Shown here one piece after another: positions 24,300-62,182 of a stretch of DNA of 64,000 bases (position 1 is the stretch's first letter; the number at the start of each line of letters is the position of its first letter). This DNA is from a virus, in the IMG/VR virus record IMGVR_UViG_3300028920_000035, positions 64,001 through 128,000 of that record. One strand, 5' to 3'. The notes below the pieces were generated by a model. It ran no database searches. It worked only from the letters and a program-made list of their open reading frames with translations, and was not told the origin of the DNA. Both the position numbers and the translations under genes were made by a program.

Positions 24300-24875
24300 A
24301 TGGCCTATCGCTATGACCGTCGGACGGCGGCCGGGCCCATTCCCCTTGACAAGGGTGATATCAAGGAGCTGGCGGACCGCATCCTGAAGAAGCTGCCTCT
24401 ATACCTCAAGTTCCGTGACGACTACATGGACACTCCCATGCAGAGGGCGCGGGGGTACAATCCCAACCGTTGGCAGTACGAGGTTGAGGAAGGTTTCTCG
24501 ACGACCAACGTGCGCAACCACCCGATTCAGGTCGAGGTACATGTTGGCTTCAAAAAGCCTGAAGTTGCGTGGGGTGGGCGTGACTATGTCACCGGGGGAG
24601 CGGTTTCGTCACGATGGTATGGGGCGGATCGACGCGGCCGGGGGCGCGGCTTTGGTCTGCACACCAAGCTGACCGTCAACTCCACGCAATTTGTCGAACA
24701 GGCGTTGAAAGCATCAGCAACCTGGAAGCGCATTCAAGGCGCATTGAATCCCCACAACGAGCGCAAGATTCGAGAAGCCGTGTCACGGGCCCTGGTGCGT
24801 GAATGGCCACGTCTACAAGAGCTGTACCCTCAGGACCCTGACGACGAGTGGGACGAGACGCTCAACCTACCCTAG
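24300..24875 (+). CDS. Hypothetical protein with N-terminal YDRRTAA tag (candidate virion cargo)
   Basis: Starts MAYRYDRRTAA, similar to MTYDYRIAA of 60638. Confidence 0.6.
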   Translation: MAYRYDRRTAAGPIPLDKGDIKELADRILKKLPLYLKFRDDYMDTPMQRARGYNPNRWQYEVEEGFSTTNVRNHPIQVEVHVGFKKPEVAWGGRDYVTGGAVSSRWYGADRRGRGRGFGLHTKLTVNSTQFVEQALKASATWKRIQGALNPHNERKIREAVSRALVREWPRLQELYPQDPDDEWDETLNLP

Positions 24876-25329
24876 CGACTAGCTGCCGTTGTTTGATTTC
24901 GCCGAGCAGCTCGCGAGTGGCACGCATCAAGGCCATCCCTGCGACCTCAGGGGCGGACTTCTTGACGACCTCTACTCGCTTGTCAAGCTGGGGGCGCCGG
25001 TCGAAGTCGAAGGGTACATAGGAAACCAGAACCTGGGCAGCGCGGGGTACTGAAAGGGCAATAGAAAAGGCGTCCAGGTGGTGACGTCCGGTAAAGAAGT
25101 AGTAGACCACACCACGGGACTCGCTCGCTCCCAGCTGGTAGCGCTCCCCGGTAGCCTTCGAGATCATGAACATAAAGCGCTCAAGCATAGCGTTGAGGCT
25201 CAGCTTGGCTTCGACGAACCCCTCGCCTGGGTCAAAGGCAACACGCGTACGAACCCAGTTGGGTACCTCCAGCGTCGGACGAAGTCGGTGAAGGTAGTAG
25301 CGGGCGGCGACTCTCTTTGCGATGCTCAT
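24862..25329 (-). CDS. Hypothetical protein with N-terminal IAKRVAARY tag (candidate virion cargo)
   Basis: Start reassigned to ATG 25329 (MSIAKRVAARY); class B element 16 nt upstream. Confidence 0.65.
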   Translation of the reverse strand: MSIAKRVAARYYLHRLRPTLEVPNWVRTRVAFDPGEGFVEAKLSLNAMLERFMFMISKATGERYQLGASESRGVVYYFFTGRHHLDAFSIALSVPRAAQVLVSYVPFDFDRRPQLDKRVEVVKKSAPEVAGMALMRATRELLGEIKQRQLVARVG

Positions 25330-25345
25330 CACCGTAGCGAGCGGA

Positions 25346-25357
25346 ACAAAAGATTGT
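25346..25357 (-). promoter_or_regulatory. Class B element ACAATCTTTTGT, 16 nt before ATG 25329
   Basis: Reverse complement of acaaaagattgt. Confidence 0.55.
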
Positions 25358-25423
25358 GGTGTCGTTGAGGGTACACCACTACCGGTTGTGAGTGGCTGAA
25401 AAGACGTGGTTCTGCTTAAGGGC

Positions 25424-25434: not shown

Positions 25435-25440
25435 GAGGAA

Positions 25441-28329
25441 ATGCCAGATCCGATCAAGCTGTCGACCAAGCAGCGGGAGAAGTACGATCATCTTCTGAAG
25501 GTTCGAGCCAGCAAGACCTGCACGCTCAAGGGTACGCCACGGATGGCGAAGGAGATCACGGGTCTCGATGGGCAGCGAGTCCCTTTCAAGTTGCGGTACT
25601 ACCAGGTCCAGGGTGCATACCATTTGCTGGCGATGCGGCGCATGGTCTTGGGGGATGCGACGGGTCTAGGTAAGACCGTTGAGGCACTGGTGGCCATGGC
25701 GCACATCTGGGGCATTGAGCCATCGACGCGCTTCGTGATCGTCGCTCCCAAGAGTGCCCTGTACCAGTGGGCTAGCGAGATCGAACGCTTTCTCGTGGGC
25801 GTTGAGCCCATCGTGGTCGAAACCCCTAAAGCGGCCAAGGGACGGGCTCGCATCCAAGCTCGCGGAGATGCCTACCGTCGTTGGCTCGAAGCCATGAACG
25901 AGCGTCGGCATGCCGTGCTGATCATGAACTACGCAACCCTGATCCGGGACTGGAATCACGGCGCGTTTCAACCCGCGTTGCCCAACGGCAAACCCGACCC
26001 TAAGGCGCCCGTCAAGCCAGGACTCCTCGACCGAGTGATGGCGGCTGCGACCCGACGTAACCTAGGTGTCTTCTTTGACGAATGTTTCGACTACCACACA
26101 CCAATCACCTTGGCGGATGGGTCCACTGAATTGATCGGCAAGATTGTCTGCACCAAGACTCCGGTTGAGGTGCAATCGTGGAATTTTGAGAAGGGTTGTG
26201 CAGAGACGAGAAGGGTCGTGTCCTGGTTTCGCAACCCGTTGCGTGACCATCACCTGTTGAAGATATCGTTTCGATATGCCAACTCTTGCCGGGTCACCAA
26301 GAGCCATAAATTCTACAAGACCAACGGCAAGTCTGTTCGTGCCGGCAGCCTGAGGCCCGGCGCTGAGACGGCTTTCTTGAGTCTGAAGGTCCCCTCCTTT
26401 GACCAAGAGCAAGTTGTCTTGGGAAGCCTGCTTGGCGACGCTTGCATCCGCAACCCAGAAGGGGCTTGGGGGGTCACGTTTACCCAAGGTGAGGACCAGC
26501 TAGACTATCTGACTTTCAAGCGAGAGGTCCTGTTGTCGCTAGGAGTGTCTGAGTTCAACTCCGGGCCCAGTGGCTACAACCCTGCTAAAACCGTACACCA
26601 CTTCAGGTTGGGGGCGAACCCTTTCATCAACTCGCGGCACCACCTGCACAATGGGGCCCGTAAGACGGTCACAGTCGATTGGTTGGACGCCATTCAACCT
26701 CTCGGCTTGGCGGTCTGGTACGGAGACGACGGCTCTCTTGGAGAGTATCGCTCCAAGAAAGGTGCAATTCGGCGCCACATCATTCTCAACACACAAGGTT
26801 TCACCAAAGCCGAAAACGACCTTCTAGCAGGTTGGTTAAGGTGGCGGTGGGGTGTCAAAGCCAAGGTGCGCCTGTCGAGCAAAGGTTTCTACCTGTACCT
26901 TCCCCACGATGCAGCCGAACGCTTTTTGGGGTTGCTACCAGGGGCTTTGCCTGGGATCGAGTACAAATTTCCCGACAAGAAGCCTCTCCCGCTTCTCGAC
27001 AGAGAACCTCACACGGGATTAGTTCGAGATGAGGTTGTGGAGGTGGTACCCTGGTCACGGGCGCCCAAGAAGCGCGACTGCCAACAATATGTCTATGATA
27101 TCGAGGTGGAGGGTAACCATAACTACTTCGCGGCTGGAACGCTCGTCTCTAATTGCCAGGCATTCAAGAACATGCGCACGAAAACCTGGGAGATCTGTCG
27201 CTACTTGTCAGACAGATCAGACCGGGCCTATGGGCTTAGTGCGACCATCATCCAGAATCGCCTGGAGGAAGCGTTTGCCATTTTCAAGTGCCTTGTTCCC
27301 AAGCTATTCACCACGAAGACAGCATTCCTGGAGGACTACTGCCACACGCAGCTTCAGCCGGTCAAAGGAGGGCGCAAGGTACCGATCGTCGTAGGGTACA
27401 AGAACCTCAAGCACTTTCGGAATCGCATTGACCCCTTCTACTTGGGACGGCTCAAGCACGAGGTCAGTGATGAGCTACCGGTCCTGACGACACGTGAGGT
27501 CCGGGTCACTCTCAGCAAGGCCGAAGAGGTCAAATACAGGGAAGCCCTGACCGGTGTGCTGGAACTGGGCGATGGTGATGTGCGCGACTATGAAGAGCAC
27601 AAGGCATTGGTCGCCCTGACCTACTGCCAGCAAGTCGTCAACTCGCTCGCCCTGCTCAAGTTCGAGGAAGGAGATGAGGTAGGTCACGACCAATTCGACC
27701 TTGAAGCAGGAGACTACAAATCACACAAGGTCGGATCCCTCAGCAGCAAGGAACAGGCGTTGGTCGATCTGCTCACCGAAGAGTTGGATGGTCAGAACGT
27801 CATTATCTACACGCGGTTCGAGTCATGGGTCGGCCGCCTCCAGACCATTCTGAAAAGGCACAAGATCGAGGCGGTTCGCATCACGGGCAGGGAGACCAAT
27901 GCTAAATTGAGGCGAGAGGCCCAGGAAGCCTTCCAGGACCCTCAGAACCCGGTGCGAGTTGTGGTCATCACCGACGCCGGTAGCGAGTCTATTAACCTCC
28001 AGACGGCCATCGCCGAGGTCTTCCTCGATAGTCCCTACAATTGGGGCAAGTACGTGCAGATCATTGGTCGCATGATCCGCATTGGGTCCCCTCACCGCGG
28101 TGTGCTCGCCTACCATTTCATTGCCGAGCGGCCCCTCAAGAAGGACGCACGGACTATTGACGATCATGTGCTCAAGCTGTTGGCGAAGAAGAAGAACCTC
28201 GTTGACAAGGTGCTGGGAGAGGCAGCTGTGGGCGCCTTGGAGTTCGACTCTGACGACACCAACTCCATCCGGGCGCTTATCAACGCGATGGCCGGCAAAG
28301 AGGGAGACGCGAAGAAGGGGAAGAAGTGA
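25441..28329 (+). CDS. SNF2-family helicase/ATPase with intein
   Basis: LRYYQ, GDATGLGKT, FFDE|CQ (after splicing), LSAT, SESINLQ, QIIGRMIRIG. Confidence 0.92.
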   Translation: MPDPIKLSTKQREKYDHLLKVRASKTCTLKGTPRMAKEITGLDGQRVPFKLRYYQVQGAYHLLAMRRMVLGDATGLGKTVEALVAMAHIWGIEPSTRFVIVAPKSALYQWASEIERFLVGVEPIVVETPKAAKGRARIQARGDAYRRWLEAMNERRHAVLIMNYATLIRDWNHGAFQPALPNGKPDPKAPVKPGLLDRVMAAATRRNLGVFFDECFDYHTPITLADGSTELIGKIVCTKTPVEVQSWNFEKGCAETRRVVSWFRNPLRDHHLLKISFRYANSCRVTKSHKFYKTNGKSVRAGSLRPGAETAFLSLKVPSFDQEQVVLGSLLGDACIRNPEGAWGVTFTQGEDQLDYLTFKREVLLSLGVSEFNSGPSGYNPAKTVHHFRLGANPFINSRHHLHNGARKTVTVDWLDAIQPLGLAVWYGDDGSLGEYRSKKGAIRRHIILNTQGFTKAENDLLAGWLRWRWGVKAKVRLSSKGFYLYLPHDAAERFLGLLPGALPGIEYKFPDKKPLPLLDREPHTGLVRDEVVEVVPWSRAPKKRDCQQYVYDIEVEGNHNYFAAGTLVSNCQAFKNMRTKTWEICRYLSDRSDRAYGLSATIIQNRLEEAFAIFKCLVPKLFTTKTAFLEDYCHTQLQPVKGGRKVPIVVGYKNLKHFRNRIDPFYLGRLKHEVSDELPVLTTREVRVTLSKAEEVKYREALTGVLELGDGDVRDYEEHKALVALTYCQQVVNSLALLKFEEGDEVGHDQFDLEAGDYKSHKVGSLSSKEQALVDLLTEELDGQNVIIYTRFESWVGRLQTILKRHKIEAVRITGRETNAKLRREAQEAFQDPQNPVRVVVITDAGSESINLQTAIAEVFLDSPYNWGKYVQIIGRMIRIGSPHRGVLAYHFIAERPLKKDARTIDDHVLKLLAKKKNLVDKVLGEAAVGALEFDSDDTNSIRALINAMAGKEGDAKKGKK
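26083..27153 (+). mobile_element. Intein with LAGLIDADG endonuclease in the SNF2 Walker B motif (357 aa)
   Basis: Begins CFDYHTPI, ends YDIEVEGNHNYFAAGTLVSN, +1 Cys; blocks LGSLLGDA and AVWYGDDGS. Confidence 0.92.
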
Positions 28330-29285
28330 CCGACGAGCTGTGCCCCCGTTGTGGAAAGGCGCCCATTGAAGGGTGTCGGGGGAAGGGGTTCATCCTGAAG
28401 GAGTCCGCCACTGGAGAGACCTCGCGGACTTGCCCGAACATCTTGATCGGACGCTTCTACGCAAAGTGGCAGCGAACCTTGGGGCAGGATGCTCAGCCTA
28501 TGATCGACATTCCGCCCGACAAGCGGTATCGGGAGTCCCCCCTCTACGTGAAGGGGGAGATCGACCTGACTCGGAACAACCTGCTCATCACTGGGTGTGC
28601 GTGGATTCGCTTCTTGAACCACCTGCGCTGGGTTCTGCTTGTGAAAGGTCTTGACTTTCATGCGCGGACCACAACGGATGCCCGCATCCAAAACGTGTTT
28701 GTCGGAGCTGAGGCCACGAAGGGCAGTCCCGACAACAAACACGAGTTCCTCACCACAAACCGGTCCCTTTACGACCACGCGGCTCCGCCGGATCTGCTGA
28801 TTATTCGACTAGGGGTGTTGAGCTACCGGTACAAATCAGCTCCTGGTGCTTTACTGGATACATTGCGTATCAGGGAGTCGCTGCACCGCCCCGTTTGGCT
28901 AGTGGAAATCCCAGGCCGCCCCTTCGAGGATTGTGCTTCTCATGACGGGGACGTTGAGGTGGAAATCAGCCGATTCCCTCGACTGGAGCTTGGAGCCGAT
29001 GACCACGACCCGAGCGCCCTTGACATGACCGAGGGGGAAGACCTGTTGGGAGAATTGGGTGAACCCGAACCCATAGACGAACCCGTAGACGAGCCGATGG
29101 GAAGGGTCGAGGAAGGAGTCGAAGAAGACGAAGAAGACGAAGACGAAGACGACAAAGAAGAAGATGAAGAGGACCTTTGTGGCGAAGATAGTCCGATCGG
29201 CGGTCCTTCTAACCCCTGGGCCCGCGGTCGGGGTTATCCAAAGAAGCGAGGGGGAGGGGGAGGGGGAGGGGGAGGTCCAATATGA
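28326..29285 (+). CDS. Degenerate DnaC/IstB-like helicase-loader homolog with N-terminal Cys cluster and acidic tail
   Basis: CPRC..C..TCP; NLLITG (eroded P-loop); DLLIIRLG (cf. DLLILDDLG); immediately upstream of dnaB. Confidence 0.5.
   Translation: MTDELCPRCGKAPIEGCRGKGFILKESATGETSRTCPNILIGRFYAKWQRTLGQDAQPMIDIPPDKRYRESPLYVKGEIDLTRNNLLITGCAWIRFLNHLRWVLLVKGLDFHARTTTDARIQNVFVGAEATKGSPDNKHEFLTTNRSLYDHAAPPDLLIIRLGVLSYRYKSAPGALLDTLRIRESLHRPVWLVEIPGRPFEDCASHDGDVEVEISRFPRLELGADDHDPSALDMTEGEDLLGELGEPEPIDEPVDEPMGRVEEGVEEDEEDEDEDDKEEDEEDLCGEDSPIGGPSNPWARGRGYPKKRGGGGGGGGGPI
29250..29275 (+). repeat. (GGGGGA)4GG G-quadruplex-capable tract overlapping the dnaB RBS
   Basis: Four G5 runs separated by single A; GGAGG at 29271-29275, ATG at 29282. 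Confidence 0.85.
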
Positions 29286-32017
29286 AGCGACTACTCCGTG
29301 GTATCATTGCCTTCGACGACAAGACCCCTATGCACTTGTTGGTGGCCAATTTCCGCCGCCTTCGCACGAGCGGGTATCAGTGGCAGCCCACCGACAAGCA
29401 GATCTTCGACTTCTGTGCGGACCACCTGCACCGCTACATGGAGATGCCATCCGTTCGTAGTCTGGTCGACTACTACGAGGTAGCCCACGACACCGAGGCG
29501 TTGGAGCGACTCAAGGACATCTCCAGCGCACAGCTCTACACGGACAGTGGGTATGCCCGTCTACTCGACGACGAGCTGGAGAAGCAGGTCCGCGTCAAGA
29601 TGCGGGCCCTCGTCAAAGAAACCAATGAGATCCTCGAAAGGGGGCTGACCTTTGGGGAGGGGCAGAAAAAGCGGCGCGTCCAAGGACCACGTGAGGCACT
29701 GGTGCATTTCACCGAGAAAGGGCATGACCTCCTACCCCCGGTCGGAAACGCCCTGACCCGTGGTGACCTACGCGATACTGTTGAGTGGGCTCGTGAACGC
29801 TACCACGAGGCCGAGATCAACAAAAGCAAGGTTTACGGCGCTTTCATGGGCCTCAACCACGTGGACACCCAATGCCATGGGTGCAAGCGCGGCGAGCTGT
29901 GGCTCCATGCAGCTTTCCCAGGCGAGTTGAAGACCGCCACAGCCCTGAACTGGGCCTACCACCTCGTCACGCGGTATAGGCACAATGTCTTCTATGTCAA
30001 CTTGGAGATGAAGTACGAGCAGGTCATGACACAGGTCTATGTCCTGCACTCATCACACGCCAAGTGGGGGCGCCCCCCGCTCGACTATCGCAAGGCCCGT
30101 GATGGGGAACTGAGTCCCAAAGACAAGGATTTTTACTTCGAAGTTCTCAACGACTTCGAGAGCAATCCCGAGTACTGTCGGTTCGAGCTTTGGTGCCCGG
30201 ACCACAACGTGACGATTCAGTCGACTCGGACCGAAGCTGAGACACTCCATCGTAAGATGGACGTGGGAATGACGTTCATCGACCACGGAGGCATCGTGAC
30301 GCCGCCTCCGGATCAGAAGGGGAAGGGTACTACCGAAGCTCTGAACGCGGTGATTCGAGAAACCAAGAAGTTTGCCCTGCATTTCAACAATGGCGAGGGG
30401 ATGGCGATCTGCATGCTGTTCCAGATCAACCGCTTGGGGAAGGATGACGCCGACAAAAACGAGGGTCGCTACAAGATGAAAGCGTTGTCATACGCCAATG
30501 AGTGCCTAGTTGAAGGGACGTTGGTGCGAACGGCCAACGGCCTTGTCCCCATTGAGTGCGTCCCGAAAGGTATGCGCGTTTGGAGCAGTACGGGCTGGAA
30601 GACGGTTCAGGCTCGCTTGGACAATGGCATTCGCGAAACTGTTGAAGTGCGTACCTCTGGAGGTCAAGCAATTCGAGTAACCCCAGACCATTTGTTTCGG
30701 ACGTTGACACCAGAGGGCAAGGTTGGGTGGACCGCTGCCGCGGAGTTGAGGGGGCGGTGCGTGCTATCTGACCTGGTGACGTCCTGGGTGTCTGGAAAGG
30801 CAGTCACATTACCACCTCTAGTTATCCAGAAGTATGAGAAGCCCTCAGGAGAGCAGAGCACACCTTTGCAGACCCCTAAGGTCATGACTCCAGAGCTTGC
30901 GTACCTGCTGGGCGCTCACGACGGCGACGGCCTAGCATTGGACGCCTATCGTGTAGGCTGGACGGGCAACCTCGAAGAGAGGGCCGTGTGCTGCCAGATT
31001 CAAACCGCATTTAAGGCTACGTTTGGGCACGAGATCAAGGAGACTAACTGTCCCTCACGGCCTGGTTCGTTTGAACTGACTAAATGGTCAAAGCCCTTGA
31101 AACGTTGGTGCCTTGAGGTTGGCATGGACCGTCAGCCCTGTATTAGCCCCTACGTGCTGCAAGCAGGGTCGGAAGTCCAGTGCTCGTATCTACGAGGCCT
31201 TTGGGATACGGACGGTAGCATCAACAATCAAGGTGTCTTGTCGATCAACATGGCCGCTGTCAAGGAGCCTCTTCTACGACAGGCCCAACTGCTGCTTGCG
31301 GGGTTGGGCATCGCCTCAACGTTGCGCCCTGGAAAGGACCGTTGCCTATTGTGGATCACGTCACAAGATGCGCGTGACCGGTTTGCTGCTGTCATTGGGC
31401 TCTCTGAGTCTTGGAAGCATCGTCGTCTACAGCTACAGGCCCGTAAACGACCCTTGGAAAAGGGAACCTGGCCCCTAGGCGAGGTCTACCTGAAGCTGTA
31501 CGAACGCTATGCACGCAAGCGTGGATGCCTCGACGGCATGGTCTTCCACCGCACTTGCTCGGTGGCAGCAACACAGGTGCGAAAAGGCCGACGGGACGTC
31601 CCTCAAGGGGCGTTGGTCAAGCTCTTGAGTGCCCTTGGGGGTGTTTGTGACGATCAGGTCGATTTCTTGAAGGCATTGGTTCTCAACTGCCGCCCCCAAA
31701 TAGTGGAGAGTGTCACACCTGCCGGTAAGGCCCCAGTGTATGACCTGGATGTGGGAGGAGACCACGAATTCTCTGCCGGAGGGCTTCTCGTTCACAATTG
31801 CGAACGGTCGGCGGACTACATCACCACGACGTACCTGAACGACGAGCTGCGAGAGAGCGGGGAGACCATCATGTGCAATCTGAAGAACCGGGACAATCCG
31901 ATCTTCAACCCCATCATCTTGAACATCGACTGGGGTTCGCGGCGCCTCTACGACCGGTCTGTGCCCGGGGAAGACGACGCTGTCGAGGATGCTGATCTGA
32001 TGACAGCCATGGCCTAG
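29282..32017 (+). CDS. dnaB: DnaB-like replicative helicase with intein
   Basis: RGELWLHAAFPGELKT (Walker A), NLEM, FIDH, FQINR, ANE|CERSAD, LKNRD. Confidence 0.88.
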   Translation: MKRLLRGIIAFDDKTPMHLLVANFRRLRTSGYQWQPTDKQIFDFCADHLHRYMEMPSVRSLVDYYEVAHDTEALERLKDISSAQLYTDSGYARLLDDELEKQVRVKMRALVKETNEILERGLTFGEGQKKRRVQGPREALVHFTEKGHDLLPPVGNALTRGDLRDTVEWARERYHEAEINKSKVYGAFMGLNHVDTQCHGCKRGELWLHAAFPGELKTATALNWAYHLVTRYRHNVFYVNLEMKYEQVMTQVYVLHSSHAKWGRPPLDYRKARDGELSPKDKDFYFEVLNDFESNPEYCRFELWCPDHNVTIQSTRTEAETLHRKMDVGMTFIDHGGIVTPPPDQKGKGTTEALNAVIRETKKFALHFNNGEGMAICMLFQINRLGKDDADKNEGRYKMKALSYANECLVEGTLVRTANGLVPIECVPKGMRVWSSTGWKTVQARLDNGIRETVEVRTSGGQAIRVTPDHLFRTLTPEGKVGWTAAAELRGRCVLSDLVTSWVSGKAVTLPPLVIQKYEKPSGEQSTPLQTPKVMTPELAYLLGAHDGDGLALDAYRVGWTGNLEERAVCCQIQTAFKATFGHEIKETNCPSRPGSFELTKWSKPLKRWCLEVGMDRQPCISPYVLQAGSEVQCSYLRGLWDTDGSINNQGVLSINMAAVKEPLLRQAQLLLAGLGIASTLRPGKDRCLLWITSQDARDRFAAVIGLSESWKHRRLQLQARKRPLEKGTWPLGEVYLKLYERYARKRGCLDGMVFHRTCSVAATQVRKGRRDVPQGALVKLLSALGGVCDDQVDFLKALVLNCRPQIVESVTPAGKAPVYDLDVGGDHEFSAGGLLVHNCERSADYITTTYLNDELRESGETIMCNLKNRDNPIFNPIILNIDWGSRRLYDRSVPGEDDAVEDADLMTAMA
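30503..31798 (+). mobile_element. Intein with LAGLIDADG endonuclease in DnaB motif H4 (432 aa)
   Basis: CLVEGTLV...YDLDVGGDHEFSAGGLLVHN, +1 Cys; YLLGAHDGDG and YLRGLWDTDGS. Confidence 0.93.
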
Positions 32018-32983: not shown

Positions 32984-33420
32984 TGCGGCAAGTCCAAATC
33001 AACTTGAGGGAACGTGGTGGCGATGTGCAGGTTTTGCTCATTTCCTCACATCGAGGGTGCTGGGAAGAGCCTTGGGACTTGTTGCGTGGCACGGCCCCTG
33101 GGGCCCTGCTGAGCGTCGTTTTGCGAGAAGATGTGGAGCACGCTCTCCACGGTCTGTCTCAGCCTTTGAGTGCCGCCCTGGGCCTACCCCCAGAGGGGTG
33201 CCTGCTCAAGCTCCCGAAGACGGCTCGGCGCTGTCATCGAGAGCAAAAGTGCCCTCTTTACGACCCACGGGTCTGCCATCTCCAGAGTGGCAAGCTGCCG
33301 TTGAGTTTCGAGCCCGCCGGCTTCGACGACGACCGGCTCCGGCTCCAAATCGCGGAACTGGTCCGGTACTGGCGGGAAGAGGTGTATGTAGTAGTCGTCG
33401 AGGAGCCAGAGCCCGCATGA
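32983..33420 (+). CDS. Hypothetical Cys-containing protein in the replication operon
   Basis: TGATG and ATGA coupling on both sides. Confidence 0.55.
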   Translation: MRQVQINLRERGGDVQVLLISSHRGCWEEPWDLLRGTAPGALLSVVLREDVEHALHGLSQPLSAALGLPPEGCLLKLPKTARRCHREQKCPLYDPRVCHLQSGKLPLSFEPAGFDDDRLRLQIAELVRYWREEVYVVVVEEPEPA

Positions 33421-36400
33421 GTGACGATGACGACGACCTGATGGCTGACGTGATGGCCGAGATCCTGCCCACTGCTGCCAAGGAGGAGCAGAAGGCACCT
33501 GATCTGGATTCTGACGAAGCGGCTGATCTGGACGATTTCATGGCCGGTATGAACCTCCAGCAGGAGGACACCATCGACCCTGAGCTGCTCAAGCCGTGGA
33601 TGAAGTACCACAAGATGGAGCTGGTCCAGGACATCGGTCGGGTGAAGGAGGTCATCAACGGCGCCATCGAGTTCGGGACCTGCTCGCTCGATCTTGAATC
33701 CACGGGGCTTGACACCCGCATCGACTTCGACAGTGGGGGGAAGCCCCACACCAAGTCCAAGGTGGTGGGCTACTGCGTCGGCTACGACGGCAACGGTTAC
33801 TACATCCCGGTGCGGCACAATTTCGACCCCATCATGGGCGAAGAGAATCCCAACGTCTCGCCCGCTCTGGTGGACCCCGAGATCACGCGCCTGTGTTACG
33901 CGGCTCAGCCGGTCCTGACGGAAGAAGGCAAGGCCAACGACCCTTTGGCGTCCAACGACATCGCCGAACCCGGTAAGGTCAAGCTCCTGTTCTGGCATGC
34001 CAAATTCGACCAGGAAATGCTGTACCCCGTCACAGGTATAGACTTCTGGCACCCGGAATCCTACGAGGACGGGATGCTCATGTTCTACTGCGTCTATAGC
34101 GACGACATGAGCTACGAATTGAAGCAAAAGGCCAAGCAGTTCCTGCGCATCAAAGACCCGGAAACAGGGGAAGAGTACCCCTACGAGATGATCAAGTACG
34201 ACAAGCTGTTCCCGAAGGGTACCCCCAAGGAGAACCGTCGTATCCACACGCGCTACCCCCGCCCCGACAACGAGGTCACGCGCTACGGTTGTTCAGACGC
34301 CATCTGCACGGAGCTGCTCTGCAAGCTCCCCTGGCTGGTCGAGAGGCTCGAAAAGACCAACCGAGGAATCTACCGTTTGGAGAAGATGACGACTCAGGCC
34401 GTGCGCATCATGGAACGGTCCCGAGTGCTCATCGACAAGGCGGCCATCGAGGCCGTGCGCCAAGAGGCCATCACAGCTCTTAAGGAAGTTGAGAAGCAGA
34501 TCAAAGGCATCGCTGAGGGGGTCGGATTCCACGACTTTAATCCAGGCTCAACGGAACAGTTGGCATCCCTGCTCTTTGACAAGAAGTGGCTCAACCTTGA
34601 ACCGAAGCCTGATAAGACCACCGAAGGGCAGTACAAGACCGACGCCAAGACCCTGGAAAAGTTGATGGAGCGCCCCGGCGCCCCGGCGATTCTCAAGCTG
34701 TCCCTGACCTACCGCCAGATCCAGAAGGTCCAGGGTACCTACCTCGACAAGATGGTCGAGAACGTTGACGAGTTTGATCAGCTACGGTTCGATTTCAAGC
34801 AGCATGGTGCTGCTACAGGCCGCTTCTCGGCGCCTCAGGAGCAGAAGGAGGAGCGTGCGTTTGGTCGGGAGGGCTACTCGGGCATCCCAATTCAAGGGAT
34901 CCCCGCTCGCGACAACCCAAAGAAGCCAAAAGTGGCGGGCTCGCTCCGAAAGGGTTTCATCGCCCGGCCCGGCTACGTCATCGTGAAGGTGGACTACGCG
35001 GGGCAGGAACTGCGAATCGTCACCAACCTGTCGGGCGAGCCCGTTTGGGAGAAGGAGTTCCTCGAAGGCACGGGCGACCTCCATACCATCACGGCGAAGG
35101 CGTTCTTCCCTGGTCTCCAGCGAACCGACCCCGACTTCAAGGTCAAGCGAACCTCGGGCAAGTGTGTCCACCCCGACACCCTCGTCTGCGGCGTCAAAGG
35201 CTATCGGCCTCTACGTAGCCTGACGCTATTCCCAAAGGAAAGTGACCGATTTTTGGGGGCCTCGCCTCCCGACGTAGAGATCGACGGGAACCCCGTCGTC
35301 GATACCTACAACGGCGGAGTGAAGAAGCTCTACCATGTCGTGACGAGCAAGGGCATCGTCACTTGCACTGCCAACCATCGTTTCAGGCTTGCGAACGGTT
35401 CTCTGGTTCGAGCGGGGGACCTCCAAAAGGGACAAGAACTAGCTCCCGTTGAGCTTCCCTCGTTGAGGGGGAGGGTAGGGGCTTCACGTCGATTAGGTCT
35501 ATGGAAGGGTGTGCCGAGGGGTGAGTATAGACTTGGACTTCCGGAATGCTACTTTGCAGGGCTGTACCTGGGAGATGGTACGGTCAGCAATTCGGGGGCA
35601 CGGTTGACCCATGGTCGAATAGGGAAAACCTGCCCCCTGGGCGTACCCTACAAGGAGTGGCAGCAAATCTTGCTCAAGGCCTGCACTGACGTAGGGCTTG
35701 ACCCCACTCCTGAGGCAACAAGCCTCTACCTAGGTAGCCGAGTAGTGGTACGCTATCTAGAAGCGTTGGAGTTGGTCGTACCTCGACCGGGTACAGCTCA
35801 AGGTCGCATGAAGAACCTGCGGGTGCCCTCGTGGGTGTTAGAGCAGGGGCAGAAAGGCTTCATGGCATTCCTGGCAGGGCTCTTAGATACTGACGGGTCG
35901 GTATCTCACCAAATGCATACTATCGAGGTCACAACCAAGGATTTCATCTTCGCGGGACAGTTGGCAGCTCTGGCACAAGCCTGTGGGCTGCCCTTGAGCG
36001 TTGAACCAACTTTCAACAAGACCTACCGCAAGCACTATGCCCGACTGCACCTGACGGTTGGGTCTGCGTGGTCCTTCCGTAAGCATTTGCGCCATCCAGG
36101 CAAGGTTCTTCGGCTAAAGGCCCCTCAAAAGCAGTCAAGTATAACCAACGAGAACATCGTCAAGAAGGTGTTTCCCGCTGGTAAGAGCGCTTGCCTCGAC
36201 GTGACTATGGGCACAGTCGACCACCTGTACCGTGCCAACGGGATGTTGACTCATAATTCGGCCAACTTCTCGCTCATTTATGGCGGCGGCGTTCAGGCGG
36301 TCATGCGTGCCACGGGTTGCGATAAGACGGAGGCGGCTCGCAAACTCGGCAACTTCCACGACAGCGTGCCGAAGTTTGCCAAGTGGGTGAAGAAGCAGCA

Positions 36401-46196: not shown

Positions 46197-46223
46197 GCTT
46201 ACATCCCTATACTGGAAAGACCA

Positions 46224-46677: not shown

Positions 46678-47940
46678 ATGCCTGATAAACGTTGCAGTTT
46701 CTGCGGGCGACCCGCAAACGAGGTCAAAAGTTTGATCGCAGCGGCTGACGACGGCCCCTTCATCTGCGACCGGTGTATTGGCCGGGCCGGCCAGAGGATC
46801 GCTCAGTCCAGCAAGACTGAGGGTGACGGTGAGGGGCGCAAGCCGCTGCCCTCACCTCGGGAGCTGAAAGCCCATCTCGACGACTACGTGATTTCCCAGG
46901 AGACAGCCAAGATCGTGCTGTCGTCGGCCTTCTACAAACACTATCTGCGGCGCGAGGCCACACGAAGGGGGGCCCTACCGGGGGCCAGCGAGGCCGAGCC
47001 TGAGAAGTCCAACGTCGTCTTGGCGGGGCCGAGCGGCTGTGGCAAGACCCAGTGTGCACGGGCCATTGCTAAGAAGCTGGGAGTCCCATTCTACGTGGGC
47101 GACGCAACTACCTTGACCCAGGCGGGGTATGTCGGGGCGGATGTTGAGTCACTTCTTCAGGGGCTGATCGCAGAGGCCGGTAACGACGTTGAGAAAGCCC
47201 AGTGGGGCATCATCTTCCTCGACGAGGGTGACAAACTCGCCCGTAAGTCGGGGCGGGGGTCCACGGGCTACCGAGACGTGACAGGGGAGGGCGTCCAGCA
47301 GGCGCTACTTAAGCTCGTCGAGGGGTCGAAGGTGAACGTCCCTCGCGGCATGGCTCGGATGATCTCGACCAACCAGGAGTCGGACATGATCGACACAACC
47401 AACATCCTGTTCGTCTTCGCGGGTTCATTTGCAGGCATCGAGGAAATTGTTGGCCAGCGGCTCAACAAGAATACCGGAGTGGGGTTCGGCAAGGACAGTA
47501 AGCGCGACTTCACGTCGCGCGAGGTCTACGAGAACATCACGGACGAGGACATTTTGGAGTTCGGGATCATCCCCGAGCTGGCGGGTCGCCTGCCCGTAGT
47601 GACCAGTGTGTTGCCGCTCACACAGGACGAGATGTACCGGATCCTGACCGAGACCAAGGACGCCTTGGTCAAGCAATTCCGTTTCCAGTTCCGTCTGGAT
47701 CGAATCGACCTCCAGTTTGAAGAAGCCGCGCTGCGGGAGATTGCCAAGCAGGCGTGTGATAGTCCCAAGGGCGCCCGCGCGTTGCGGGGTATCGTCGAAA
47801 AAGCCCTGGCCCCCTACGTTTTCGCGTTTGCGGGCCCTAACTCGGAAGCAAGCCGCATTGTCGTGACCGAAGCTCTCATCAAGGGCGAGGGTGAGGCCCT
47901 CGTCACACGACGCGCGCATGCTGTGGCTGCACAGGCGTAG
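46678..47940 (+). CDS. clpX: ClpX ATP-dependent unfoldase
   Basis: C4 Zn finger CSFCG..ICDRC; GPSGCGKT; GYVG pore loop; [14 protein letters not shown]; VGF ClpP-docking loop; GARALR. Confidence 0.95.
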
Positions 47941-48131: not shown

Positions 48132-48140
48132 TCTTTTTGT
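48129..48140 (+). promoter_or_regulatory. Class B element TAGTCTTTTTGT, 16 nt before ATG 48157
   Basis: Motif and spacing match. Confidence 0.55.
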
Positions 48141-48156
48141 GGGACGTGCCCCAGTG

Positions 48157-48921
48157 ATGACCGTCGCAAGCCGTGTAGCCACCCGCTGGAAAGCCGCCAA
48201 CGTTGTCCCCTTTAGGGGCCGTCCCAGAGGTCCTCAGGTGGCCATTGGAAGCCGCAAGTACGTTTTGAGCGACTACTGGCCCATGGGAACGGCTGGTGAC
48301 GGTGAGGCTCCCGCAGCAGGAGCCCGGGTCATCGACGTGGGGGGCGACAAGTTCCGCTGGTTGTGGGCCTATGACACTGACAAGCAGGTTCTCGCCATGT
48401 GGCGCTACACAGACGGGGATGAGAAGCACTACGAGAACGCCCACCGTGCGGCTCAGCACATTCACAAGCTGGAGAAGCGAGGGCAGCTCAATCGTGTCAC
48501 CAATGCCGAGTTTCGGATAATCGAGCGCGAGATGAGCCGTCGCTATGAGGATGTCATCAAAACGCTTCGGGAACACGCCCGGTCTCTCGGCGGCGATTGG
48601 CAGGAGCAGGTCAACGCCATCGCCCGTGATTTCTTCGACCACAAGGTCCGCCCCCTCATCGAGCGAGCCCTGAGTGACGCCGCCCGTGGTGCCGTCCCGA
48701 TGGGGTTCAGGTTCAATGAGCGTATACCCCAGAGCCGTGATCAGCAGATTCGGGCTCACATCGTCAGTCAGATGGTCCACCAGCGGTTCAACGAGCGCTT
48801 GATCGAGGACACGATGCGCACCCAAGGGCTCGATCCCGAGATGAGAGGGGTGGATAACCAAGCTGCCTACTGGGCAGTGAGCGAGCTCAGACAAGATGTG
48901 TACGAAGAGTACCTACGGTGA
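48157..48921 (+). CDS. Hypothetical protein with N-terminal VASRVATRW tag (candidate virion cargo)
   Basis: MTVASRVATRWKAA is in register with the starts of 56960 and 25329(-). Confidence 0.7.
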   Translation: MTVASRVATRWKAANVVPFRGRPRGPQVAIGSRKYVLSDYWPMGTAGDGEAPAAGARVIDVGGDKFRWLWAYDTDKQVLAMWRYTDGDEKHYENAHRAAQHIHKLEKRGQLNRVTNAEFRIIEREMSRRYEDVIKTLREHARSLGGDWQEQVNAIARDFFDHKVRPLIERALSDAARGAVPMGFRFNERIPQSRDQQIRAHIVSQMVHQRFNERLIEDTMRTQGLDPEMRGVDNQAAYWAVSELRQDVYEEYLR

Positions 48922-56004: not shown

Positions 56005-56010
56005 TCGGTT

Positions 56011-56932: not shown

Positions 56933-56944
56933 TGATTTTCTTGT
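56933..56944 (+). promoter_or_regulatory. Class B element TGATTTTCTTGT, 15 nt before ATG 56960
   Basis: Motif and spacing match; no SD. Confidence 0.6.
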
Positions 56945-56959
56945 GGCCTCGCTTCATGC

Positions 56960-59900
56960 ATGGGTATCGCCGCGCGGGTTGCCGCTCGCTACAAGAGCAA
57001 GAAGACGACCGACAAGGGCAACGTCATCTACGAGTATAGCACTGCTCAGGTCCAGCATCGCAACCGCGAAAAAGCTAAACGCCTGGAAAAGCTGGAGTCC
57101 AACGTCACCAAACTGCGGACTCAAGTTGAGAAGGACCTCAGCGCCAAGGACGTCAAGAAGCGGCAGACCGCACTCGCGGTGGGCCTCATTGATCATACGT
57201 TTGAACGAGTGGGGAACGATGAAAGCGCTGACGAAGGTCACTTTGGCGTCACCGGCTGGCAGAAGAAGCACGTCACGTTCTCGGGCGGCAAAGCGACCCT
57301 TCAATACATCGGCAAGTCGGGGATCGAGCAGGAGAAGACCGTCACCGACCAGAAGCTAGTCACCGAGCTGAAACGGGCCGCAGACGCCTGTGGGGACGAT
57401 TCAGACTGCCTGCTGGCGGATGTGAGCGCAGAGGACGTCAACGCCTATCTCAAGCCCTACGATGTGACAGCCAAGGACCTGCGGGGCTTCCATGCCAACC
57501 GGGTCATGCGAGAGAAGCTCCAGACCGCGCGCAAGGGTCAGCTTCCCAACGACAAGAAGAAGCGAGAGGAGAAGCTCAAGGCTGAATGGAAGAAGGCGCT
57601 TGAGGCCACGGCCAAAGCGGTGGGGCACGAGCCTTCAACGCTGGGTAACCAGTATCTCGTGCCGGGACTCCAGGACGACTTCATGAGGGACGGCGTGGTC
57701 AGCGAGCCCGGCAGCAAGACCGCAGGCGTCGTCAAGCTCGACCTCGCGTGGGTCGAGAAGATGCGCAAGGACTTCTTGACCCTGCTCAAGAACATCCCCC
57801 ACATCAAGACCTTCAAGGAGGCCCATCGAGTCCGCGAGGGCCTTCGGGTCTACCGCGAACAGTTCGACAAGCTATTCCACGAGCGGTTCCTCCGGCACAC
57901 CCTCAAGTACGACTACGAGGACTACGGGATCAGCGAGGACTACGCCAAATACTACACCAAGCAGTTGGGTACTCCGTCGTGGGACTTCTACATCGCGCTG
58001 GCAGAGATGCCGATCGGCTTCGTGGACGACTACTGGGACGAAGACCGCCTGATGGCCCGCTTCACGCAGGAAGCCCCCAAGTGGGAGACTCGCCTCAAGC
58101 GCAAGGCCCAGAAGTTCTGGAAGGTACTCCGAGACGTGCTCCAGGACTTCAAGAACCGGGAGCGGGAGATCCAGGTCAAGACCCTGGACGTGGAACAGGT
58201 GACGCTCGAAGGGTTCCGCGTCCAGGTGCGGGGGTTCGACCCGAGCGACGACATTGACGTCGAGTCACTGGAGGTCTTCAAGAAGGGGCTGAGGATCTAC
58301 CGACGCAACGCGGCGGCTCGCTACCCCCGCTTGCTCAAGGACCAGGTGCCGATCGTCTACGACTGTGAAGTGAATCTGGACAAGGGCGGGACCTACAGTC
58401 ACAGCGGCCTGATCACGTTCTATGCCTCGGCGGTCATCAAGGAGCCCCCCGCTCGTGCCGCCCACATCCTTGCTCACGAGATGGGGCACCACGAGTGGCG
58501 TCTGCTCGATGGGAAGGCACGGGAGTTCTGGGAGACGGCCATCGCAGGCGACTACGGCGACATCGACCTAGCCGAAGTTGTAGCCAAGTGGCCCAGGGGG
58601 GCGTGGGCCTTCGACTTCACCAGGTACATGGCCGACACCGACCCTGTACTAGCCCTTCAGATGGAGGGCCTCGTCCACAGCCAGAACCACGAAGAGCTGA
58701 ACACCAAGGAGGACTTCCAGGCCCTGTTGAGCAGCGGCCAGCGGACGCTGCGGGTGCCCAAGACGCCCATCACGGGGTACGCCAACAAGAACCCCCAGGA
58801 GGCGTTCTGCGAGGCTGTGGGTCTGCTGGTGGCCTACGGACCCCGGGCCCTCCACGAACGCGTACGCGGCTGGCTGGGCATCATCCTGGGCAACGAGGTC
58901 AAGGTCGCGGCCCGCGTGGCCGCCCGCTACCGCGCGGCCTTTGACGGCTCGACGCCGTTCGGACCGATGGACCCCGACAGCGTGATCAAGCGGGCCACCC
59001 TGGCCCATCGCGTGGCGCGCCGCTTCATCGCCGACAGCTACGGCGACCCGAAGACCTACCTCGACGCGATGACCGAGGCGCTCCGACGCTACCAGATGTA
59101 CCGTGACCTCTTGCCGACGATGCGCAAGGCAGAGCGGTGGGTCGACCAGAACCCGGGCGTGCCCCCGGGCACCGCCCTGACGGGGGACGGCGAGCTGGAC
59201 AAGGTGCTGCACAACTTCCGGATGTTCCTCGTGAAGTATGCCTACGCCGTCCAGGCCATGTATCCGACGATGTGGCGCGCAGGCGGGTCCAAGGTCTTCC
59301 TTGCGCTGCTCCAGCAGTACAGCTTCTCCGACCGGCGCCTACGGTCAAGGGTCGAGCAGGGGGCCAAGTTCTATGGCAAGACACGCTCCAGGAAGCCTCG
59401 GCCCGCCCAGTCTGTAGCCGTCTTCGACAAGGCGTTCACCCAGTATCTGGAGCACCTCGAAACCATCCGCGATGCACTGAAGAAGGGCGTCCCTCATGGT
59501 GCTGAAGGTGCAGCCCAGGCGAAGATCCCCGCGGGCCCCTTCACCCTGGTCAACACGGGCGGCTTCGACGACAAGACGATGGATCTCGTCGCCAAGCTCG
59601 CCGTCAAGGCCGCGGGCCTGCTCAAGCAGCACGGGTACGGCCGTGCCGTCTACGGCGACATCCACATCAGCAACACGGTGGGGCGGTCGTCAAAGGTGTT
59701 GGCATTCTACTCGGTCAACACCGACGAGATGTTCGTTCGGGCCAACCTCAAGGGGAAGTTCGACAGCGCGCTTCACACCATCCTGCACGAGCTGGGGCAC
59801 CGGTACGAGAAGTTCGTCGCTGCGAACGACATCCGCGCCATCTACCGCCGCCTGAGCAACCAAACGTCGGACCAGCGCCGGTCCTCCGACCTGAAGTACC

Positions 59901-60193
59901 CCAAGGAGGGGGAGACCGCCGTCGAGCGCGGCAAGACCTTCGTCGTGTCAGGCACCGAGTACACGGGACGTGGCGTCCGCGTGAATCTCAGGCTTCAGGA
60001 CGACGCGACCAAGCAGTTCCACACGACAATCGACGGCTGGTACGCGATGACCGGCCAGGTCAGCCCCGCAGGCGCCTTCATCAGCAAGTACGCCCGCACG
60101 GACCCGAGCGAAAACTTTGCGGAGATGGTCGCCCACCACTGTCTTGGCACGCTGCCCCAGGAGCAAGTCGAGCTGCTCGAAGCGATCATCTGA
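56960..60193 (+). CDS. Type IB topoisomerase domain fused to two zincin (HExxH) metallopeptidase-like domains; RVAxR-punctuated polyprotein
   Basis: TopoIB pentad ERVGN / GKSG / KDLRGFHAN / VGHEP / NQY; HEMGH...EAFCE; HELGH...ENFAE. Confidence 0.85.
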   Translation: MGIAARVAARYKSKKTTDKGNVIYEYSTAQVQHRNREKAKRLEKLESNVTKLRTQVEKDLSAKDVKKRQTALAVGLIDHTFERVGNDESADEGHFGVTGWQKKHVTFSGGKATLQYIGKSGIEQEKTVTDQKLVTELKRAADACGDDSDCLLADVSAEDVNAYLKPYDVTAKDLRGFHANRVMREKLQTARKGQLPNDKKKREEKLKAEWKKALEATAKAVGHEPSTLGNQYLVPGLQDDFMRDGVVSEPGSKTAGVVKLDLAWVEKMRKDFLTLLKNIPHIKTFKEAHRVREGLRVYREQFDKLFHERFLRHTLKYDYEDYGISEDYAKYYTKQLGTPSWDFYIALAEMPIGFVDDYWDEDRLMARFTQEAPKWETRLKRKAQKFWKVLRDVLQDFKNREREIQVKTLDVEQVTLEGFRVQVRGFDPSDDIDVESLEVFKKGLRIYRRNAAARYPRLLKDQVPIVYDCEVNLDKGGTYSHSGLITFYASAVIKEPPARAAHILAHEMGHHEWRLLDGKAREFWETAIAGDYGDIDLAEVVAKWPRGAWAFDFTRYMADTDPVLALQMEGLVHSQNHEELNTKEDFQALLSSGQRTLRVPKTPITGYANKNPQEAFCEAVGLLVAYGPRALHERVRGWLGIILGNEVKVAARVAARYRAAFDGSTPFGPMDPDSVIKRATLAHRVARRFIADSYGDPKTYLDAMTEALRRYQMYRDLLPTMRKAERWVDQNPGVPPGTALTGDGELDKVLHNFRMFLVKYAYAVQAMYPTMWRAGGSKVFLALLQQYSFSDRRLRSRVEQGAKFYGKTRSRKPRPAQSVAVFDKAFTQYLEHLETIRDALKKGVPHGAEGAAQAKIPAGPFTLVNTGGFDDKTMDLVAKLAVKAAGLLKQHGYGRAVYGDIHISNTVGRSSKVLAFYSVNTDEMFVRANLKGKFDSALHTILHELGHRYEKFVAANDIRAIYRRLSNQTSDQRRSSDLKYPKEGETAVERGKTFVVSGTEYTGRGVRVNLRLQDDATKQFHTTIDGWYAMTGQVSPAGAFISKYARTDPSENFAEMVAHHCLGTLPQEQVELLEAII

Positions 60194-60221
60194 CGGTTCC
60201 ATCTATGCCCCGCCCTTGTGC

Positions 60222-60611
60222 GTGGCATCCCTCGACGAGCTGGAACTCTTGGACCGCAGCATCGCTGACCTCGACGCCCGTTGGGAGCGCAACTTCAAAG
60301 CCTGGACTCGTCGACGAAACCTCCAAGAAACGGCGGTTGCCTACCTCGGCAACAAGTGTCAAATCTGCGGTTACGGCACGTGCATCGAGGCCCTCGACTT
60401 CCACCATGTCGACCCCCAAGAGAAAGATTTCAACATCAGCGACCGTATCACGAGCTTCGAGGCCATCAAGCCCGAGCTGGACAAGTGTGAGCTACTGTGT
60501 TGCCGTTGCCATCGCGAAGTCCACGCGGGGATGCATCCGACGCATCTCGTCATGGAAGACGAGGACCGATCATATGATCCAGGAAACTTTCCCATGGCTG
60601 CTATGGGCTGA
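60222..60611 (+). CDS. HNH endonuclease
   Basis: CQICGY..ALDFHH.DP..K...KCELLCCRCHREVH; GTG start 15 nt after the class-B-like GGTTCCATCTAT. Confidence 0.85.
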   Translation: MASLDELELLDRSIADLDARWERNFKAWTRRRNLQETAVAYLGNKCQICGYGTCIEALDFHHVDPQEKDFNISDRITSFEAIKPELDKCELLCCRCHREVHAGMHPTHLVMEDEDRSYDPGNFPMAAMG

Positions 60612-60637
60612 TTTCTTGAACGTTTCAGGATAGAATC

Positions 60638-62182
60638 ATGACGTACGATTACCGCATTGCCGCCGTTACGCTAGAAGAAAAAGGTACTGGGTCGTATAAG
60701 GTTTTTGGACCCTATGCCGAGATGCAGAGGATCATCCCGCTGCTGAAAAAGCAGAAAAAGTGGCGGTACAACGGTCTTGACAAGTCGTGGGAGAGTCGTG
60801 ACTTGGGACCTCGCCAGCTGGCCAAGGTGAAGGAGGCCCTAGGGCTTGCCCCCGCTGCCCCCGCTGCCAAAGCCTCCCCTCGAGTGTTCAACAACTTCGT
60901 CGAGAAAGCCCTTAAAGTACAGGGCCCCAAGGGCAGTTTCGATTTCGATCGGAAGGGTGAAGTCCTCACCCTCAAGCTGGTGGGAAACCCCACACAGGAA
61001 AAGGGCCTGATGGAGGTCTTGGCTACGGCACGGAAAGCGGGCGCCGAGGGTAACTACCCCTACCTCGAGATGACTTCCGCGGCATTCAACGCTAAAGCTG
61101 GGAAGGCTCTTCTTGAGCAACTTTCCAATTTGAACGCGGCCGTTGAGGAGGCCCTTAAAGAGCGTGCAGTGGCGAAGGCGCTCTTGGGAAACATGCTGCC
61201 TTTCCAGGCATTAGGTATTCGAGGCAAGTTTACAGACACAGTTACCTGGGAAGGGGCTACTCGCCCCTACGCCGAATTGTTCAAGAGCAACAAGTTCCGG
61301 TGGACCGGATCTCATTGGGACGCAGCCCTAGTCAAGGGCCTACCCTCTCGTGTCGAAGCCATCATTGACCGGTTAAAGAGTGACGCCCAGGAAGCGGATC
61401 AGGCTGCCACCAAGCTGGGTCTCCCTCAGCTGTACCCGAACCTGGAGATCAGGGTATTCACTGTCGACGGGTACATTCGATTCTTGGGGGACCTCCGAAA
61501 GTACAAGGATGGCCTCTATTCAGCTGGGCTGTTGTGGGACGGCTCCTATTGGGAGGGGAACCTAGCCAAAGTTGATGTTGATGACCTTCAGAACGTTCTG
61601 AAGGCCATTGAAGCGGACGACACTGCCGAAACCACTGACAAGGGTCCGGCTAAGGTGCGTAGGGGTCGCCCCAACCAACGCGGCGACCACTGCCAAGACT
61701 GCGGCGGGTGGGTTGAACCTGGAGACGGCATCATTGAACGGGTCCTTGACGAGGACGACGACAGGATGATCTGGGTCGTCTACCACCGGGATATTGAGGT
61801 TTGTCAGCAGACCAAGACCCGACGGCGGCAACAGCGTGAGGAAGAGGCCAAGCGGCAACAAACTAAGCGCCAAGCTGAGCGCGCACTACGGGATTATGCC
61901 ATCAAACAAGGCAAGTCCCCCGACCCCAACAACAAGCGGGTCACGCTCAAAGGTCGTCGAATCTACCTCGACGAGACAGCGCTCGCCTATGGCGGGGGCT
62001 ACTGGGTTGTCATCGAGCCCGGCAACCAGTACTTCTGGTACGTCATCAACAACGGCGCCGATGGCGACGACTGGTCTCGCAACAACGTTTCCACCGGAGG
62101 CGCGGGCGCTATCGGGTATCGCGTTCCCCTGACTGAAGAGGCCAAGCAGCAGATCGAGATCATCTCGGGTGAGAAGATTTAG
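60638..62182 (+). CDS. Hypothetical multi-module protein with N-terminal YDYRIAA tag (candidate virion cargo)
   Basis: Repeated [FLW]-x-[WY]-[DTN]-G-x(1-3)-W modules, a CQDC motif, and C-terminal DDWSRNNV.TGGAGAIG; class-B-like GATTTCTTGA upstream. Confidence 0.65.
   Translation: MTYDYRIAAVTLEEKGTGSYKVFGPYAEMQRIIPLLKKQKKWRYNGLDKSWESRDLGPRQLAKVKEALGLAPAAPAAKASPRVFNNFVEKALKVQGPKGSFDFDRKGEVLTLKLVGNPTQEKGLMEVLATARKAGAEGNYPYLEMTSAAFNAKAGKALLEQLSNLNAAVEEALKERAVAKALLGNMLPFQALGIRGKFTDTVTWEGATRPYAELFKSNKFRWTGSHWDAALVKGLPSRVEAIIDRLKSDAQEADQAATKLGLPQLYPNLEIRVFTVDGYIRFLGDLRKYKDGLYSAGLLWDGSYWEGNLAKVDVDDLQNVLKAIEADDTAETTDKGPAKVRRGRPNQRGDHCQDCGGWVEPGDGIIERVLDEDDDRMIWVVYHRDIEVCQQTKTRRRQQREEEAKRQQTKRQAERALRDYAIKQGKSPDPNNKRVTLKGRRIYLDETALAYGGGYWVVIEPGNQYFWYVINNGADGDDWSRNNVSTGGAGAIGYRVPLTEEAKQQIEIISGEKI

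Follow-up and report, generated by a model that had tools for sequence, protein, structure and literature searches.

Why should unrelated genes, scattered along a phage genome, begin with the same short peptide? The question is raised by a 64,000-nucleotide stretch of viral DNA (the window), which comprises bases 64,001-128,000 of the 147,622-bp IMG/VR virus record IMGVR_UViG_3300028920_000035 (G000 below). A first-pass annotation had reported an [ILV]-A-x-R-V-A-x-R-[YFW] peptide, here called the tag, at the start of three unrelated genes and twice inside the product of one of them, together with a second tag at the start of two further genes, and had read these peptides as capsid-loading signals, prohead-protease sites or both. 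All seven peptides are present at the positions claimed for them (Table 1). We conclude that the tag is a real address-type peptide of which we found no published description; the motif strings (RVAARF, RVAARY and similar) retrieved no paper in a full-text literature search. It is shared by proteins that are otherwise unrelated.

The motif occurs far above background. When the strict pattern, [ILV]AxRVAxR[YFW], was run on a six-frame translation of the whole record (295,240 positions), it gave five matches against 0.014 expected from residue frequencies; 200 residue shuffles gave a mean of 0.025 matches and a maximum of 1, and the reversed pattern gave none. In three of the five, the match begins at the third residue of an open reading frame. 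Outside the window, close to where a 2H-phosphoesterase gene ends (window-equivalent position 76408), there is a sixth, near-copy, KRVAARYRF. As back-translation of the strict pattern into DNA lacked sensitivity in relatives, we turned to whole genomes: G001 (512,571 bp, terminal repeats), G002 (447,761 bp, terminal repeats) and G003 (363,484 bp). A loose pattern, [RKHNQ][VIL][AVLMIC]xR[FYW], was run on the called proteins of G000, G001 and G003, and 29 of its 55 matches lay 2-14 codons from the start codon (binomial p 6e-24), compared with one N-terminal match among 23 for the reversed pattern. Thus, the proposed enrichment at N-termini holds in three genomes. Each genome of the clade, which consists of phages of 300-600 kb, has about 6-16 tagged proteins.

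We aligned 35 tags on their aromatic residue, which together with the arginine before it (F/Y/W at 0, R at -1) was imposed by the search pattern. Upstream, the consensus has an acidic residue at -11/-10, L/I at -8 and I/A/V at -7. The core has R at -5 in 27 tags, V at -4 in 30 and A/V at -3 in 32, and downstream A occupies +3 in 18 tags, after which the sequence is Pro-rich. The overall motif, (D/E)-x-x-[LI]-[IAV]-x-R-V-A-x-R-[FY]-x-x-A, describes a helical peptide of about 12 residues, and its conserved positions form one face of an amphipathic helix. The motif is kept over genomes of 49-59% GC. Copies in the record of the window use AGA, CGG and CGC for the first arginine and also differ in their valine and alanine codons; for the second arginine, all six codons are used over two relatives. 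Because the arginine codons vary freely, the target of selection is the peptide, in agreement with the first-pass annotation.

The tag is also separate from the fold of its cargo. We modelled the family of the 48157 protein and a doubly tagged TopoIB with AlphaFold2 (mean pLDDT 84 and 87, respectively). In both models the tags are low-confidence free helices joined by disordered linkers to confident cores; in the 48157 family, the helix spans residues 3-13, residues 13-19 are disordered and the domain begins at about residue 21. In these models the tag is structurally detached from the cargo, at either terminus, on a flexible linker. Pairing of the N- and C-terminal tags of the TopoIB with each other was considered as well, and no confident pairing was predicted. 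The 48157 family has 27 sequences (32-61% identity, on contigs of up to 473 kb), and most of the 26 further members retain the tag, for example as MDPLAKKVAARY and MDPIAKRVAVRF. The family model had no fold match in PDB, and a profile search against PDB sequences was likewise empty.

The 56960 protein accounts for the internal copies. In G001 and G003 its three modules are found as tagged genes of their own: a TopoIB of about 350 aa in both, the middle zincin (G003_303587, G001_279499) and the C-terminal zincin (G003_218105). At the junction between TopoIB and the middle module only a decayed relic of a tag is left. Thus, the two internal copies that had been reported do exist, but they are former N-termini and relics of gene fusion, not cut sites; we rejected a polyprotein cut site because the fusion of separately tagged genes accounts for them. 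In all, four independent fusions (the 56960 protein, G001_279499, G001_273096 and P0023) unite modules that are tagged separately elsewhere. Such fusions are a Rosetta-stone signal, which implies that the tagged proteins all act in the same place.

The second tag does recur, with N-termini of the YDYDRR type found again in G003 (MMGPDYDRRWVTLAA, MSYDYDRRASD). However, it is not an independent system, and we rejected that idea because tags 1 and 2 exchange among homologues. The middle-zincin family has tag 1 in G001 and tag 2 in G003, and the relative of the 60638 protein, G001_59326, carries tag 1. The similarity between the 24300 protein and the tag-1 protein G003_19274 is confined to 26 residues following the tag (50% identity, E 7e-5) and to a C-terminal segment that is alike in both; they are not mutual BLAST hits at E 1e-5. 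As homologues swap them, the two tags are alternatives for one role.

The tag is coupled to its own dedicated upstream DNA element. The element that the first-pass annotation had called class B, T(C/T)TTG(T/A)(G/T/A)(G/C), is indeed found at all five tagged genes of the window (as a variant at 60638), with its first base 18-25 nt ahead of the start codon, and at four of them no Shine-Dalgarno sequence is evident. Very few other genes in the record are preceded by it. In G001 its counterpart, ACTTATAG(G), stands 18-21 nt ahead of a start in five places, and all five genes are tagged. The class at tagged genes can be written TCTTGTGG / ACTTATAGG. A similar element occurs in a few structural genes, where it lies farther upstream and is followed by a normal ribosome site. 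A search with PF00940 found no T7-type RNA polymerase, but its controls were unmatched too, so this search is uninformative.

The tagged cargo includes TopoIB, several zincin-like peptidases, an HD plus poly(A)-polymerase-type nucleotidyltransferase, a DnaJ-domain protein, a DRAT-like ADP-ribosyltransferase, the 2H phosphoesterase with its C-terminal tag, and many proteins without a family. The TopoIB family has 467 matches on contigs of up to 659 kb, and about 140 IMG/VR contigs carry it. Among the best 120, 78 have the tag at the N-terminus and many others have an R-to-K variant, and the tag merges directly with the conserved enzyme start RYKxKK. More than 30 TopoIBs also bear the motif a few residues before the stop codon, as in …ERVAARFRAR(stop) and …AFRVIERYLKG(stop). 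From these sequences the tag would work C-terminally too, which goes beyond the earlier N-terminal view. Some TopoIBs, like the 56960 protein, have two or three tags each. At loci L120, L139, L147 and L167 (G018, G021, G022 and G024), TopoIB is one part of an open frame that exceeds 1,250 aa and extends past the fetched locus; here the same modules are built into giant multidomain proteins of the 'polyvalent' form. The 2H phosphoesterase (genome positions 139868-140515, window-equivalent 75868-76515) is LigT-like, with a weak match to the anti-CBASS protein Acb1. Its frame continues after KRVAARYRF for about 30 His/Pro/Arg/Cys-rich residues that do not look like coding sequence, which may reflect read-through or a frame error.

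Table 1. Tagged genes, tags, upstream elements and the ClpX gene in the window (positions are those of the window)
Feature	Position	Strand	Basis
1077-aa fusion protein: tag, TopoIB, zincin module 1, two tandem tags, zincin module 2	56960..60193	+	Pfam Topoisom_I at residues 32-227, E 4e-27; weak Peptidase_Mx
Tag IAARVAARY, residues 3-11 of the 56960 protein (N-terminus MGIAARVAARY)	56966..56992	+	sequence
Internal tag VAARVAARY within KVAARVAARYRAA, in the linker after zincin module 1	core 58904..58930	+	sequence
Internal tag LAHRVARRF within TLAHRVARRFIA	core 59000..59026	+	aligns with the N-terminal tag of stand-alone zincin G003_218105
254-aa protein, N-terminus MTVASRVATRW; tag VASRVATRW coded by 48163-48189	48157..48921	+	tag family; fold without assignment
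155-aa protein, N-terminus MSIAKRVAARY; tag IAKRVAARY coded by 25323-25297	24862..25329	-	sequence
191-aa protein, N-terminus MAYRYDRRTAA; alternative tag AYRYDRR	24300..24875	+	homologue of tag-1 zincin-like G003_19274
514-aa protein, N-terminus MTYDYRIAA; alternative or truncated tag TYDYRIAA	60638..62182	+	homologue G001_59326 has tag 1
Element TCTTGTGG, 21 nt ahead of the ATG of 56960	56939..56946	+	
Element TTTTGTGG, ahead of 48157	48135..48142	+	
Element TTTTGTTC, ahead of 25329	25344..25351	-	
Element TCTTGTGG, ahead of 24300	24279..24286	+	
Element TCTTGAAC (variant), ahead of 60638	60614..60621	+	
Phage ClpX: zinc-finger N-domain, GYVG pore loop, VGF ClpP-docking loop; directly upstream of tagged 48157	46678..47940	+	

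Where would such an address lead? One indication comes from the head genes. PHROGs left the structural genes of the window's record almost blank, and in G003 it identified the portal (E 2e-27), the head maturation protease (E 6e-12) and the major head protein (E 1e-49), in a module that is syntenic in G001 and G002. In G001 and G003 its conserved proteins also include one of 417-479 aa, encoded ahead of the major head protein, and one of 669 aa. The terminase-portal module of all three genomes has two tagged genes as constant members. The first, a 129-aa gene, begins within the last 4 nt of the gene upstream. The second, a TopoIB gene, comes straight after the probable large terminase (weak TerL_ATPase match, E 8e-4), with the junction varying between an overlap of 1 nt and a gap of 6 nt; the portal is found four to five genes downstream of this TopoIB. 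Thus, the claim that tagged genes lie outside the structural block holds for the record of the window and fails for its relatives.

Two observations on the head module stand apart from the tag. The major head protein (290 aa, G003:96778-97650) is 94-95% identical to its orthologues in G001 and G002, compared with 50-75% for other head proteins, and is under unusually strong constraint. The probable large terminase has 1119 aa in G003 (79359-82718) and about 660 aa in G001 (415906-417894) and G002; this difference in length suggests that the G003 terminase holds an inserted element, possibly an intein.

We propose that the tag is a short amphipathic docking helix on a flexible linker, mostly N-terminal but sometimes C-terminal or between fused modules, which would give co-regulated accessory enzymes one common binding partner. 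The most likely partner would be a conserved part of the head or packaging machinery. The tagged TopoIB, zincin peptidases, ADP-ribosyltransferase, 2H phosphoesterase, nucleotidyltransferase and DnaJ protein might then be encapsidated and delivered with the DNA, the role played by the T4 capsid-targeting sequence or by the cargo-loading peptide of an encapsulin. We give this reading, in which a docking helix recruits accessory and effector enzymes to the head or packaging machinery and loads them into the virion, a probability of roughly 0.4. The terminase-portal context, the polyvalent-type domain repertoire and the precedent of phage T4 support an association with the head or with packaging. 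Of the earlier proposal, the address label thus survives as the best reading and capsid loading gains indirect support, but the protease sites are not supported.

In T4, a 10-residue capsid-targeting sequence (CTS) is found on unrelated internal proteins, and Alt has propeptides at both ends (PMC9026906). As with the T4 sequence on IPI-III and Alt, a short terminal peptide marks unrelated proteins encoded by scattered genes with their own regulatory signals, and many TopoIBs are tagged at both ends, as Alt is processed at both. Unlike the T4 sequence, the tag is not followed by a conserved protease site, and it can be C-terminal or internal. No evident similarity between the tag and the T4 sequence is known. 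The cargo itself resembles the polyvalent proteins, in which zincin, ADP-ribosyltransferase, 2H and nucleotidyltransferase domains, often fused, are predicted to be packaged (Iyer et al. 2017; PMC5512222). The tagged set has the same repertoire and frequent multidomain fusions with peptidase modules. However, most of its modules are separate genes, and the role of the MuF or portal fusion is apparently taken by the short tag; no MuF or portal-type head-anchoring domain was matched by Pfam in the tagged proteins scanned.

Several points weigh against recruitment to the head. We infer both the partner and the destination of the tag, and no cultured relative was found. The majority of tagged genes lie outside structural modules, and the strongest neighbourhood of many of them is ClpX, not the head genes. 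No position beyond +3, acidic or otherwise cleavage-like, is conserved in the 35 aligned tags, unlike in the T4 sequence. Additionally, there is no need for a CCA-type nucleotidyltransferase or for a DnaJ protein to be injected.

A bolder form of the proposal seems to us distinctly unlikely as it stands. Here, a portable 12-residue helix would be a general capsid cargo-loading code, usable at either end, whose bearers are packed and injected, with ClpX, where present, acting as loader or timer. It would resemble the cargo-loading peptides of encapsulins and the encapsulation peptides of microcompartments, which are likewise short terminal peptides placed at either end of unrelated enzymes on a flexible linker. 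The encapsulation peptide of microcompartments is an amphipathic helix, and the encapsulin shell has the phage-capsid fold. These peptides differ from the tag in consensus, and the tag belongs to a true virus. Extracellular contractile injection systems also load unrelated effectors through an N-terminal signal and encode an AAA+ unfoldase, Pvc15, alongside. In our phages, by contrast, the unfoldase is ClpX with a conserved ClpP-docking loop, and it is missing from some genomes that bear the tag.

In one of the other explanations, the tag leads to a different common hub. This might be a chaperone of the host, such as DnaK, a factory for replication or transcription, a phage compartment within the cell, or the membrane; the tags might also bind one another and so assemble a multi-enzyme body. 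An amphipathic helix in which hydrophobic residues are flanked by arginines would suit such a role, as would the multivalent proteins with two or three tags; one tagged protein has a DnaJ domain, and the fusions imply co-localization but do not name the place. However, the strict conservation of R-V-A-x-R-[FY] favours a specific protein groove over binding to lipid or to a generic chaperone, and the two tags of the modelled TopoIB are unpaired, which counts against self-association. We regard this explanation as unlikely.

The main rival has ClpX as the partner. In this explanation, the tag binds the zinc-finger N-domain of phage or host ClpX, and either ClpX, docked on the ClpP of the host, unfolds and degrades the tagged enzymes on schedule or these enzymes serve as adaptors. 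The ClpX of the window aligns over its full length with that of E. coli (E 8.5e-98). A full-length ClpX was found in all five of the first relatives and in 17 of 25 further records; a single-sequence ClpX scan of viral contigs gave no match. Tagged genes flank ClpX in G000, in G001 (five or six in a row), in G003 and at several other loci. Of 15 loci with a 48157-family gene, six have ClpX 2-3.5 kb upstream of that gene, and a seventh has it about 6 kb downstream. In six phage ClpX proteins, the four zinc cysteines, GYVG and the [VLI]GFG ClpP-docking loop are invariant, and the RKH loop is not kept. These features are invariant though no ClpP gene was found in the record of the window or in four relatives (five genomes, two of them complete). 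Because the docking loop is retained without a ClpP gene in these five genomes, phage ClpX probably uses the ClpP of the host. In G001 (277071-279446), G003 (215783-218077) and G015, the ClpX gene is interrupted directly behind GPSGC of the Walker A motif by about 350 aa, probably an intein.

Known ClpX signals resemble the tag in several respects. They are short, basic and aliphatic, and they occur at either terminus or in linkers. The tether of SspB, the XB peptide, has the sequence LRVVK. XB binds the ClpX N-domain from anywhere in a polypeptide, and fusion to it alone suffices for degradation (PMC12373786); a tether of this position-independent kind would fit tags at N-termini, C-termini and linkers. 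Known N-degrons of ClpX, such as TNTAKILNFGR of lambda O and STAKLVKSKAT of Dps, are likewise short, basic and aliphatic (PMC8138137). However, the likeness of the tag to LRVVK, or to N-motif 1, TNTAKI and STAKLV, is loose. The tag is also longer than these signals, and helical.

The distribution of ClpX counts against this explanation. Among the TopoIB-bearing records, G018 and G024 (CheckV 100%) and G025 (92%) have no ClpX even at E 0.01, but they have 11, 13 and 9 sites coding for RVAxR[FY], respectively, against 4, 3 and 2 in the control. In G018 and G024, 20 sites were read, and roughly two-thirds of them lie close, by a few residues, to a start or stop. Thus, the tag and phage ClpX do not co-occur across all genomes. 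Since terminal tags persist in these three genomes, phage ClpX is not an obligatory receptor, and since they persist in complete genomes without ClpX, the partner must be universal. The ClpX of the host may still serve as a receptor. Many tagged genes are also distant from ClpX. We consider the ClpX explanation unlikely, slightly more so than a common hub of another kind.

The remaining alternatives fare worse. It is very unlikely that the tags are recognition or cleavage sites of the prohead protease, cut after [KR]-x-A, as the first-pass annotation had suggested. Relatives do encode a head maturation protease, and alanine stands three residues after the aromatic position in 18 of the 35 aligned tags. 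However, this alanine suits the helix as part of its hydrophobic face, and behind the tag neither an acidic residue nor any other is fixed. In TopoIB, where the tag runs directly into the enzyme start, a cut would have no room, and we found no support for the cut site itself. Finally, it is hardly credible that the motif has no common partner and either acts in short-leader transcripts, on translation or at the mRNA level, or merely caps a helix neutrally. Its tight coupling to the upstream element and the lack of an evident Shine-Dalgarno sequence at four of the five tagged genes would fit, but synonymous codons vary freely, the motif is also C-terminal and in linkers, and it is conserved over genomes of 49-59% GC.

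The surroundings of the tagged genes can be described briefly. The record has a GC content of 59%, and CheckV estimates it to be 31% complete, which implies a genome of about 470 kb. The first 24 kb or so of the window continue a tail/baseplate block. The remainder holds replication genes (SNF2 helicase, DnaB and PolA, with inteins in all three), a transglycosylase, ClpX, an exonuclease and many unknowns. The SNF2 helicase (25441-28329), the DnaB-type helicase (29282-32017) and the family-A DNA polymerase (33417-38702) each contain intein insertions as well as LAGLIDADG-type homing-endonuclease ones. Between the replication genes and ClpX, the minus strand (44367-46265) encodes a 632-aa protein with a penicillin-binding-protein-type transglycosylase domain (Pfam Transgly, E 3e-45).

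Our results bear on phages of 300-600 kb, of which very little is known as to how they organize their hundreds of accessory proteins. If the tag leads to the capsid, it would be the second code of this kind to be known, next to the capsid-targeting sequence of T4, unrelated to that one in sequence and usable at either terminus. If the tag is a general cargo code, it would amount to an encapsulin-like loading system in a true virus. Conversely, if the partner is ClpX, it would mean a phage-encoded re-targeting of the ClpP protease of the host. One short peptide marks a defined set of host-directed and DNA-handling enzymes in hundreds of metagenomic contigs, so that for any related genome the set can be listed from sequence alone.

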